Source: Escherichia phage vB_EcoM_G4507
Sequence record: NC_054919.1
Reading direction: 5' to 3' (one strand)
DNA: 64,000 bases
The notes beneath the pieces were generated by a model, which was not told the DNA's origin, searched no databases, and was given only the letters and a program-made list of their open reading frames with translations. Within the stretch, counting starts at the first letter, position 1. Every line of letters starts with the position of its first letter. Shown one piece after another: positions 13,250-35,134 of this stretch. The translations under genes were made by a program, and so were the position numbers.

Positions 13250-13930
13250 TTATTTTAATGTTACGAAAGAAGAATTACGTGTTTCACGAATTAGAACTGA
13301 TCCGTCACGATTAATGTAGTAAATTAAGCTAAATAAAGTTTGGTGTGCCGACGCATGTTCAAAACTAGTTGGGTGAGATTTCCAATCTGGGGTTTCAGCA
13401 ATCCATTGATAAATCCACCAAGGAACAGTGCAGAATCCTGGATTTTTTCCAATCAGCTGAAGATTCGGACTAAAGTTTTCCGGAAGAGTAAATACAGACG
13501 GCTTTTCAGATTCAATAATCTCAGCTACAGCCTGTTCGAATTTTTCTTCAACAAAAGGAGTATCTTCAATTAAAACAGTGGTATTTTCAGGAATTTTATC
13601 CGTTTCTACTACTTCAATTTTAATGTCAGATTTAACCGGAGAATCAATCAGAAGTGCTGCCTCTGGATTGACTTCTTCATCGTCATATTTTAATCCGTCT
13701 GCGGCATCAGCAGCATCAATTAAGTCTTTAATAGATAACCCATCAGTCTCTGGCATAGGTTCACTAGCGAGCTTCTGGAGAGCTTCTTCAATATCATTAA
13801 CGATATTATCAAAAGATTTATTCTTTTTGACCTTTATACCAAACTGTTCAGCATATTCAGCTAATTTAGCTTTAGCTTCTTTATTATCATCAAGAGCCTT
13901 CAGCTCTGCAATATAATCTTTATCTATCAT
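13250..13930 (-). CDS. inh: inhibitor of prohead protease (Inh)
   Basis: 226-aa ORF directly downstream of hoc; length and position match T4 inh as recalled. Confidence 0.8.
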   Translation of the reverse strand: MIDKDYIAELKALDDNKEAKAKLAEYAEQFGIKVKKNKSFDNIVNDIEEALQKLASEPMPETDGLSIKDLIDAADAADGLKYDDEEVNPEAALLIDSPVKSDIKIEVVETDKIPENTTVLIEDTPFVEEKFEQAVAEIIESEKPSVFTLPENFSPNLQLIGKNPGFCTVPWWIYQWIAETPDWKSHPTSFEHASAHQTLFSLIYYINRDGSVLIRETRNSSFVTLK

Positions 13931-13979
13931 AATATTTCCTCAGTATAAATATAGATATATTTATTACTCGGAAAATAGT

Positions 13980-14597
13980 ATGTACCACTTTGTATATGAA
14001 ACAACAAATCTAATAAATGGTAAAAAGTATATAGGAAAACACTCTACTGATGACTTGAATGATGGTTACCTTGGTTCCGGTAAGGCAATTCAGCAGGCTA
14101 TAAAGAAATATGGTGAAAACAATTTCTCTAGAACAATACTAAAAGAGTTTAAAACTTCCGAAGAAGCGTACATGTATGAAGAAGAAATTATAACTCCTGA
14201 AATAATAAAAAGCAAAAATTATTATAATATGAAACCTGGTGGAATTGGTGGAATTGTTATGACTACAGAGGTTATAGCAAAGATGAAAGAATCTTCCGCT
14301 AAGAGATTTGAAAACTCACCGGGCACGGTATTAGGTACAACTTGTTACACTAATGGAACTAAAAATATTTTTATTAAACCTGGAGAACTTGTTCCAGAAG
14401 GATTTGTAAAAGGAATGGTTCATCCTAATAGAAAGTCCAGAAAAGGATGTAAAGTCAAACCGACTACCACAGGAACTTTTTGGGTCAATAACGGTGCAAT
14501 AAATAAATTAATACAACCAGACGGTATTATTCCCGACGGATTTATTAAAGGTCGTCTCATGAAAAGAGATTCTAAAGGCAAATTTAGTAAGGCATAA
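13980..14597 (+). CDS. segE: GIY-YIG homing endonuclease, seg-like (segE position)
   Basis: N-terminal GIY-YIG motif: HFVYETTNLINGKKYIGKHS...YLGSGKAI...E; 205 aa; sits between inh and uvsW on the opposite strand from its neighbours. Confidence 0.65.
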   Translation: MYHFVYETTNLINGKKYIGKHSTDDLNDGYLGSGKAIQQAIKKYGENNFSRTILKEFKTSEEAYMYEEEIITPEIIKSKNYYNMKPGGIGGIVMTTEVIAKMKESSAKRFENSPGTVLGTTCYTNGTKNIFIKPGELVPEGFVKGMVHPNRKSRKGCKVKPTTTGTFWVNNGAINKLIQPDGIIPDGFIKGRLMKRDSKGKFSKA

Positions 14598-33871: not shown

Positions 33872-33958
33872 TTTATTCTCCTTTGTTTATGTAAGATAAT
33901 ACTATCACAAAGGAACTATACTGTAAACAACTTTATGCAATCTTTGGAAAATAAAAAA

Positions 33959-33976
33959 GGACTCCCGAAGGAGTCC
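33959..33976 (-). terminator. hairpin GGACUCC-UUCG-GGAGUCC
   Basis: 7-bp stem with UUCG loop 5 nt after the stop of the 58-aa ORF, then U-run. Confidence 0.55.
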
Positions 33977-33981
33977 TCAAC

Positions 33982-34158
33982 TTATGCTTTCTGCTTACCA
34001 AAACGAGAAGCATCATCTCGAAGAACCGCACGTGCTCGGCGCATGATCTTCTCAACAGTTTGATTGATACGAGAGTTCGACCCACGCTTGTAGCCAGCGC
34101 GTTTAGAATCACCAACTTTCTTTTCAACTGCTTTCTTTGCTTTAACTTGTTTTGCCAT
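33982..34158 (-). CDS. small basic protein (58 aa; possible 72-aa form from ATG 34200)
   Basis: Lys/Arg-rich MAKQVKAKKAVEKKVGDSKRAGYKRGSNSRINQTVEKIMRRARAVLRDDASRFGKQKA; start uncertain. Confidence 0.45.
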   Translation of the reverse strand: MAKQVKAKKAVEKKVGDSKRAGYKRGSNSRINQTVEKIMRRARAVLRDDASRFGKQKA

Positions 34159-34402
34159 TATAAATTCTCTTTTAAATGAAAATGCAGGACTTATTGGCAT
34201 TGCCTGCGAAAGCCCTCAAAGGGGTACTTAGGTTTTGAATATTTACCGACAGGATAACCATAAACCCGTCATCATTCACATTCAAGAGGTACACCATAAA
34301 ACTGCCGGGGTCTTAAAACTATAATGATTCGCAAATCATTAATCAGACAGTTCGATGGCTCCTCGATTTTAGCTCACACTAAGGCAGTGAATCTCCAATA
34401 AA

Positions 34403-34651
34403 TTACTTCAGTGTTACCACAAAGTGACGAACTGCTTTTCGTGCAGCAGAAGCCAGAGGCTTAGCATACTTAAGTTCATCTTTTTCCTGAAGCTCAGCGG
34501 CTAATGCAGTTTGAGCAGGATTTAGATGTTTGAAATAACGCAGGATTTCAAGAGCTTCGGCTTCAACATCAATAGATGCGCCATAGTTTTCGTGACCATT
34601 ATTCCATGCGTTTCGTTGCAGTTCAAGAGCGTGTTGTAATTGTTTAATCAT
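34403..34651 (-). CDS. rIII: lysis-inhibition accessory protein RIII
   Basis: 82-aa ORF between gene 31 and the 30.x array; length and position match T4 rIII as recalled; TATAAATA upstream at 34781-34788. Confidence 0.8.
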   Translation of the reverse strand: MIKQLQHALELQRNAWNNGHENYGASIDVEAEALEILRYFKHLNPAQTALAAELQEKDELKYAKPLASAARKAVRHFVVTLK

Positions 34652-34798
34652 TTAAAAATTCTCGTTAGAGATTAAAACTCGGTAGTCACGTTCTTCTGAA
34701 TTTCATCTTCTTTCGACAGATCTCTCAGTTGTAGACTACCACATAGAATTGTTCGGTTAACTTATTATTCCGACACCCAATTCATATTATTATTTATA

Positions 34799-35134
34799 TC
34801 ACTTATAAAGACATGGAATAGCTTTATAGTGACAAGTAACGAATTTTTGTTTAATTTCTTTTGGCTGCTTAAGACCCAGAGCTACAAAAGGATGCGGAAC
34901 GTTTCGAATTTGACCAACTGGAAGAGAAGTCAAATCACCAACTTCGCAGAAACCTTCAGGAACATCAGGACCAACAGAGTGAACTACACACAATTCAGGA
35001 ACTTCACCTTGAACACGTTTACCGATAATAAGCCCTGATTCTGTGACTTCTTCATCGCCAGCTTGTGCAGGTTCAGAAACTAAAATAACATATTCACCGA
35101 CAGCACGAATTGGTAGCTGTTGTACTTCAGACAT
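34799..35134 (-). CDS. 31: co-chaperonin gp31 (GroES analogue for gp23 folding)
   Basis: 111-aa [43 protein letters not shown]...; length matches T4 gp31 as recalled. Confidence 0.92.

Follow-up and report, generated by a model that had tools for sequence, protein, structure and literature searches.

The spacer between rIII and gene 30.9 of this Tequatrovirus is 244 nt long and occupies positions 34159..34402, as part of the transcribed minus strand, of the window (by which we mean the whole 64,000-nt stretch of DNA that was analysed). Over the window, Escherichia phage vB_EcoM_G10400 has the same sequence throughout (100% identity), and its coordinates correspond 1:1. Upstream in the same transcription unit lies rIII (34403-34651, minus strand), which is separated by a gap of 147 nt from gene 31 (34799-35134, minus strand), further upstream. 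On the other side is gene 30.9 (33982-34158, minus strand), which encodes a 58-aa basic protein with a PHROG match to phrog_1427, and which is followed by a strong terminator (33957-33978, minus strand), with gene 30.8 beyond it. The rIII–30.9 gap of phage T4 is also 244 nt (NC_000866 130541-130784), and about 950 T4-type records match the region. In every record inspected, T4 included, the 244 bp carry no annotation.

The original prediction described this gap as non-coding and unusually long, and both points stand. In the annotation of G10400 no other intergenic spacer of the 64-kb window is as long, and about 80% of the spacers are shorter than 60 nt; neither strand of 34159-34402 contains an ORF of at least 60 aa (the longest is 41 aa). 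The runner-up, of 226 nt, is a divergent region (13748-13973) that adjoins a gene annotated as 'group I intron endonuclease' (13974-14591); this gene probably codes for a homing endonuclease of the free-standing kind. The nrdB and td group I introns account for the spacers of 128-158 nt, which are parts of them.

Promoter-like sites are found on both sides of the rIII–30.9 segment. Directly after the gene 31 stop codon is TATAAATA (34791-34798, minus strand), the T4 late-promoter consensus; from its position, rIII and the spacer are probably transcribed late as well. The gap between 30.9 and 30.8 (33872-33981) has a PeSL arrangement, in which a terminator stem-loop is combined with an early promoter, of the kind associated with mini-circle excision and integration (PMC2839356, PMC4122927). 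Here the terminator hairpin at 33957-33978 is followed by a T4 early-type promoter, TTTACA N17 TAGTAT (33899-33927), which serves 30.8.

A comparison among T4-type phages, in which the gap was represented by 23 different versions, resolves the untranslated spacer, from the rIII stop codon to the 30.9 start codon, into a mosaic of three modules, which we call A, B and C in the order of transcription. Total gap length in relatives is 120, 244, 263-297 or 352-399 nt. The best explanation is that the spacer is an untranslated part of the 31-rIII-30.9 transcript that was assembled from independent conserved RNA modules. Folding of the gap as a whole gives z scores of -1.7 and -1.15 on the two strands, compared with shuffled sequences, which is marginal and not significant.

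Module A (34365..34402, minus strand) is a leader that consists of a bulged-U hairpin (34374-34390; UCAC-U-GC / GU-GUGA) and then GCUAAAAUC. It occurs in two sequence variants, between which the hairpin is kept by A-U to G-C and G.U to A-U changes. It is optional: it is absent from JS10, L007, L036 and PNJ-6 (relatives of the Dhakavirus and Mosigvirus groups), in which B begins 4-9 nt past the rIII stop codon, and in KpV477 an A-like unit precedes a module other than B. The fold energy of module A by itself is not significant, and we infer that it is an optional accessory hairpin. We also considered module A as a mimic of a type I-F CRISPR repeat (an RNA anti-CRISPR), and rejected this. The string TTCACTGCC...AGCTAA is common to module A and to what we take to be the type I-F repeat sequence; matches of equal score occur elsewhere in the window, the CUGCC/GGCAG stem is lost, and none of the CRISPR-DR models in Rfam matches module A; the similarity is at chance level.

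Module C (34159..34277, minus strand, as are all of its elements) is the conserved 5' leader of 30.9, and comprises hairpins C1 to C3 and the ribosome-binding region, with a Shine-Dalgarno-like AAGAGA at 34166-34171. Its identity is 90-96% across four genera. Phage EP01 has cleanly lost both A and B, and retains module C alone in a gap of 120 nt. Hairpin C1 (34244-34274) has two covarying pairs, and in two of the Vequintavirinae, A5-4 and LTH01, it is also found directly after B. The other two hairpins are the inverted repeats that had originally drawn attention to the gap, namely CCCCUUUGAGGG (C2, 34213-34224) and GCAGG...CCUGC (C3, 34184-34207). Both are present, but their sequences are invariant and show no covariation, and their pairing is putative. 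The U tract that follows C3 is interrupted and not conserved. Together with the 30.9 start, C3 resembles the DUF2815 RNA motif (RF03084) in having a hairpin with a conserved loop, then a Shine-Dalgarno sequence and an AUG, but the match scores only 14.6 bits where the gathering score is 41.2, far below the threshold for membership, and module B is not involved in it. Module C is most likely a cis-acting 5' leader of 30.9.

The original prediction had also left a choice between ATG 34200 and ATG 34158 as the start of 30.9, and this is settled by comparison. In JS10, translation from ATG 34200 would be ended by a stop codon, in VR7 a 1-nt indel puts this ATG out of frame with 30.9, and the T4 annotation gives a 58-aa product; the aligned sequences therefore place the true start at ATG 34158, not at 34200. 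Database records differ on this point, with 72 aa in BF15 (L003:1253-1471) versus 58 aa in T4 (L004:1865-2041), and the comparison gives no support to the 72-aa form.

Between modules A and C lies module B (34286..34364, minus strand, as are all of its elements), a structured RNA of 79 nt in the form of an extended hairpin with four helices. From the base outward, these are P1 (34361-34364 with 34286-34289), P2 (34355-34359 with 34293-34297), P3 (34346-34350 with 34302-34306) and P4, which is a hairpin (34322-34341) closed by a UGCG loop. All four helices covary. Between P3 and P4 is an invariant asymmetric internal loop, in which UGAU on one strand faces UAGUUUUAAGACCCC (34307-34321) on the other. 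We aligned 23 distinct B sequences, from Tequatrovirus, Mosigvirus, Dhakavirus, Gaprivervirus, Vequintavirinae and the Kuravirus group, and used as controls the same structure with its 3' partners slid by 1-3 columns; the structure itself had first been derived from pairwise comparisons. Standard pairing is found in 98.1% of the cells of this alignment. Thirteen of the 24 pairs, distributed over all four helices, are changed on both sides, versus 0-1 in the slid controls, although the effective number of sequences is only 1.24, with three or four lineages represented, and the covariation signal partly reflects shared ancestry. Helix P2, for example, occurs as GCCAU/AUGGU, GCCGU/ACGGU, GCCAC/GUGGU and GCUGU/ACAGU, and a C-G to U-A change in P3 is found additionally in three T4-type contigs (L047-49). 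Two pairs are of the G.U type (columns 11-86, invariant; columns 25-72, in 11 sequences), and these are compatible with the transcribed strand only. The minimum-energy fold is this same structure for the Tequatrovirus, Vequintavirinae and Kuravirus copies (z scores of -2.9 to -5.0). A covariance model finds module B with 115 bits, as a single copy in the window. The expectation that the gap holds an RNA structure is thus borne out by a covarying four-helix hairpin, not at the repeats on which it had been based.

Conservation within module B is distributed unevenly, in that the loops exceed the stems. About 28 unpaired nucleotides are invariant (A10, CGAA, UGAU, UA.UUUUA, CC.C, UUUU and GUA), a pattern which, as read from the alignment, is typical of a specific tertiary fold or a recognition surface. 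Across genera, module B is 89-95% and module C 90-95% identical, as compared with 83-85% for rIII and, for 30.9, 78-81% in VR7 and JS10 but 95% in PNJ-6. The original prediction would have been undermined by a region unconserved among relatives, and the opposite is seen, with modules B and C exceeding the flanking genes in conservation. High identity of B across genera could stem in part from recent exchange rather than from constraint. The pairing and conservation patterns show that module B is a discrete RNA of about 80 nt with its own structure, encoded on the transcribed strand and under purifying selection.

The longest ORF in the gap, of 41 aa, was rejected as a gene. Its start codon (ATG 34295-34297) falls inside helix P2 of module B, and T4 and others, 17 of the 23 aligned sequences in all, have ACG in its place. 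Lineages also differ by indels of 1-5 nt, and the predicted product has no match in Pfam and no significant match in PHROG.

Directly 3' of module B is UUGAAUGU (34278..34285, minus strand), which is a module boundary and a hot spot for insertion. The site is empty in the window phage and in T4; other relatives have there a hairpin module of 45 nt or, more often, a module of 152 nt. The larger of these, absent from the window, is a second non-coding module of 130-152 nt that stands right after B in many relatives (for example BF15, L003:1040-1195) and also occurs in KpV477 (L042:895-1030). It is present in 408 phage records, including T4-type phages of Klebsiella, Enterobacter, Citrobacter and Serratia, and its identity is mostly 90-95%, far above that of the flanking genes. 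Its fold according to RNAalifold comprises multiple helices, with four compensatory pairs. Rfam gives no match, and the module looks like a second unannotated structured RNA.

A further element is a long hairpin in the gap between gene 31 and rIII (34680-34741, minus strand), formed by GGUAGUC...GACUACC and an inner CUGA...UCAG around the loop GUCGAAAGA. It is conserved in T4-type phages (909 records), and shares the string GUCGAA with module B. Klebsiella phage KpV477 (Jiaodavirus) has a homologous hairpin directly upstream of 30.9, with compensatory changes to GGGAGC/GCUCCC and CCGA/UCGG. The KpV477 gap (L042:776-1144) is without B, and contains, in this order, a C1-like hairpin, an A-like unit, the 152-nt module, C2 and the hairpin related to 34680-34741. 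The modules are thus reordered in KpV477, from which it follows that whole RNA modules have been shuffled at the locus. These comparisons mark the region from gene 31 to 30.9 as a hot spot for the shuffling of structured non-coding modules.

Module B, of which there are roughly 620 copies in phages, is not confined to the T4-type phages. Among close relatives it is an on/off character, being absent from some Tequatroviruses (EP01-type) and from many Kuraviruses (such as phiEco32). Within the Kuravirus group it is found in 28 of 81 records (SU10, ES17, MN03 and others), whereas the site is empty in phiEco32, Paul, NJ01 and many others. SU10 differs from phiEco32 by about 93 nt, cleanly inserted between the gp004 stop codon and the terL-proximal terminator; in the Kuravirus group B sits about 10 nt upstream of this 18-bp intrinsic terminator, which precedes terL. 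A decayed mini-B, lacking P3 and P4, is present in the related Nieuwekanaalvirus KBNP1711. In a few Vequintavirinae (W70, A73, A5-4 and LTH01), B stands at the head of a tRNA/stable-RNA cluster, and after it come a tRNA-like sequence, then tRNA-Met, then a homologue of the T4 species 2 RNA. In Justusliebigvirus of the muut type (17 records), B lies between tRNA-Gly and tRNA-Gln and is 96.5% identical to the Tequatrovirus copy. In every group B is oriented in the sense direction relative to the surrounding genes. A search of 5,426 E. coli genomes plus plasmids gave no match to B, and pattern scans of IMG/VR, JGI metagenomes and GTDB returned only coliphage copies, the chance matches being rejected by the covariance model. 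By this distribution, module B behaves as a portable cassette, and has been exchanged among four otherwise unrelated groups of virulent coliphages. Four records named 'Campylobacter' also match the gap and module B, and these may be mislabelled T4-type coliphages.

The cluster in W70 contains two further features. The tRNA-like sequence directly after B (L006:2605-2690) has an acceptor stem (GCGCGGG/CCCGCGC), a T arm with GGUUCGAGUCC and a long variable region; it is not called by ARAGORN, and may be a degenerate or unusual tRNA. The homologue of rnaD (T4 species 2; L006:2787-2890) is about 90% identical in two blocks to the T4 sequence (L046:2554-2672), and rnaD is therefore also shared between unrelated coliphage groups.

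In phage muut (MN850573, L005:2500-2848), a Justusliebigvirus, the T4-derived insert is circularly permuted, with the order A-B-C, and C is followed by an ATGG that continues in frame into the final 27 codons of rIII. The resulting 28-aa ORF (MEKDELKYAKPLASAARKAVRHFVVTLK) is driven by the 30.9 start region, and the arrangement recurs in 17 records. The insert is bounded by TTTATTGGAGATT, and the empty site (ESCO8, L044:215-345) has TTTTATTGGAGATT just before tRNA-Gln, which argues that a circular or tandem T4 fragment was integrated by 13-nt homology. In VEcB (NC_052663 52758-53508), an HNH endonuclease gene occupies the spacer between tRNA-Gly and tRNA-Gln, which marks this spacer as a place where mobile DNA has inserted repeatedly.

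Module B does not correspond to any of the RNA families or signals with which it was compared. Searches of the gap and its relatives with the 4227 covariance models of Rfam 15 (E<=10) gave nothing that overlaps module B, and the matches elsewhere in the gap are at 12.5-14.6 bits, versus gathering thresholds of 41-108. ARAGORN finds no tRNA or tmRNA in the window, nor in the T4-type gaps of L003, L007, L010 and L013. There is no intrinsic terminator on the minus strand of the gap, the nearest being that at 33957-33978, after 30.9, and no promoter-like site of a PeSL cassette (TTTACW N17 TAYWAT plus stem-loop). By eye, the gap shows neither a T4 late promoter (TATAAATA) nor a MotA-box arrangement, and neither of the two GGAG sequences, in modules A and B, fits the RegB consensus GGAGRAYARAA (PMC3014915). 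Module B is also without sequence similarity to T4 rnaC or rnaD. In the literature we found no description of the module B RNA, although it may be listed anonymously in an automatic catalogue of about 8,500 phage RNA candidates (PMC10690425). From these comparisons, B appears to be a phage structured non-coding RNA module that lies outside any known family.

What would such a module do? We consider B to be the core of a small stable RNA domain, which is processed or protected by host RNases and is recognised by a host factor at its invariant loop, and give this reading a probability of about one half. The loops are kept while the neighbours of B change, and the carriers share only their host; B would therefore most likely be an autonomous RNA, acting through its own fold and the machinery of E. 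coli only. The domain would be released from the polycistronic transcript by host RNases, or protected within it. In the tRNA-cluster contexts, where B is upstream of RNase P substrates, RNase P and RNase E would release it; in Kuraviruses the RNA piece would be bounded by a stop codon and the terminator, and in the T4-type transcript by conserved hairpins. The conserved asymmetric internal loop would then bind a specific host factor. The function is read from context, and any particular partner is much less likely than this overall picture. Against a stable RNA of this kind, B is dispensable in nature, being absent from EP01-type Tequatroviruses and from phiEco32.

Of the other explanations, the one that survives best is that B is a hairpin of the RNase III type, similar to T7 R1.1, which is cut at the internal loop to separate the cistrons and leaves a protective 3' hairpin. 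Module B does have the architecture of a T7-type RNase III signal, in that P1-P4 form an irregular duplex of about 27 bp with an asymmetric internal loop, placed between cistrons of a polycistronic mRNA. In JS10, PNJ-6 and SU10 it begins 4-14 nt past the upstream stop codon, and the need for a host enzyme alone would account for its portability. What makes us regard this explanation as unlikely, if still a serious one, is that about 28 unpaired nucleotides are invariant while the stems drift, which exceeds the usual constraint on such sites, that on its 3' side the loop measures 16-21 nt, and that in SU10 the 3' end is already protected by a strong terminator hairpin.

A more doubtful explanation is that B represents a new class of small self-cleaving ribozyme, which would cut the polycistronic transcript without protein. 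It is suggested by analogy. The twister, pistol, hatchet and theta ribozymes have a sporadic and mobile distribution, in the sense orientation within operons, and B is likewise independent of context, sporadic, mobile and in sense in operons, with tRNA clusters as its setting in two lineages; its conserved nucleotides are clustered in internal loops between covarying helices. The likeness is one of pattern only, however: no Rfam ribozyme family matches B, and neither a pseudoknot nor a multi-way junction is evident.

The position of B within the 5' untranslated region of 30.9, a gene for a small and very basic protein, and the aptamer-like appearance of its conserved internal loops raise the possibility of a cis-regulator of 30.9, whether a riboswitch aptamer, a translational operator or a binding site for gp30.9 itself. 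We consider this improbable. The genes downstream of B are 30.9, terL, a tRNA-like sequence and tRNA-Met, or a 30.9::rIII chimera with its truncated rIII fragment, and thus form no consistent functional class, as would be expected for a riboswitch or regulatory leader. In addition, 30.9 of EP01 retains module C without B, and modules of 45 or 152 nt separate B from C in many relatives. For module C, cis-regulation is far more plausible than it is for B.

Very improbable, in our view, is a factor-independent antiterminator RNA similar to put, by which E. coli RNA polymerase would read through terminators. The HK022 put RNA is a precedent for an element that needs the host polymerase alone (PMC9378689), the Kuravirus B sits just ahead of the terminator that precedes terL, and the strong terminator at 33957-33978 is downstream of B in the T4-type phages. 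From its description, put consists of two V-shaped stem-loops of about 70 nt in total, whereas B is one extended hairpin, and C1, the next hairpin after B, is set off from it by 45-152 nt in many relatives. Moreover, Kuraviruses without B have the same terminator, and 30.8 has its own early promoter past the terminator. Finally, that the gap has no function of its own, and consists of gene remnants or recombination scars with chance hairpins, is barely credible: the fold of the whole gap is not significant on either strand and modules are gained and lost between relatives, but each of the four helices of B has compensatory changes, the non-coding modules exceed the flanking genes in conservation, and B has been kept after transfer to three other phage groups.

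A bolder version of the argument is that B is a new functional RNA class in T4 itself, traded among coliphages, and acts either as a self-cleaving ribozyme or in trans as a neutraliser of a host factor, such as a defence or RNA-decay protein. We hold this to be a speculative and unlikely proposal. If it is true, then the rIII-30.9 region, the 152-nt module and hairpins of the 34680-34741 type would make up an 'island' in which non-coding RNA genes are shuffled. No virulent phage has been studied better than T4, and its 244-bp rIII–30.9 spacer holds a covariation-backed fold that matches no Rfam family and is gained and lost in isolates. Natural pairs with and without B (T4 versus EP01; SU10 versus phiEco32) make this a directly testable and tractable system.

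Portable RNA modules that need no protein and function in whichever phage infects a given host are rare, and include self-cleaving ribozymes, put antiterminators and RNA anti-CRISPRs. The put antiterminator binds the zinc-binding domain of the RNA polymerase beta' subunit and suppresses downstream termination. As would be the case for B under the antiterminator explanation, put of HK022 is a phage RNA that acts in cis on host RNA polymerase alone, and B is placed upstream of terminators; put, however, is a V-shaped structure of two hairpins that is located beside promoters in lambdoid phages, as opposed to the single hairpin of B in virulent phages (PMC9378689). The phage ribozymes (twister, pistol, hatchet and theta/HDV-like) are similar to B in size, in their sporadic and mobile distribution in the sense orientation within operons, in their association with tRNA clusters, and in having conserved loop nucleotides between covarying stems. 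Module B is homologous to none of them, and catalysis by B is hypothetical. The PeSL cassettes of T4-type phages are, like B, short non-coding elements that are found at module boundaries and accompany gene shuffling, and their mini-circle mechanism fits the circularly permuted muut insertion. Module B differs from them in having neither a terminator nor a promoter, in being defined by a covarying fold, and in crossing phage families.

Two further comparisons are with RNAs of T7 and of T4 itself. The RNase III signals of T7 (R1.1) are, like B, irregular hairpins with an asymmetric internal loop in intercistronic positions, and they share with the proposed role of B a dependence on the host only. 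The loops of B are invariant and far larger on the 3' side, and B is an optional cassette that crosses families. The species 1 and 2 RNAs of T4 (rnaC and rnaD) are processed from a longer transcript and have an orphan function. Module B differs from both in sequence, and in T4 is located between protein genes rather than in the tRNA cluster; stable accumulation belongs to rnaC and rnaD, whereas that of B is predicted. All three are short structured phage RNAs, and rnaD has a homologue in the same Vequintavirinae tRNA cluster as B.
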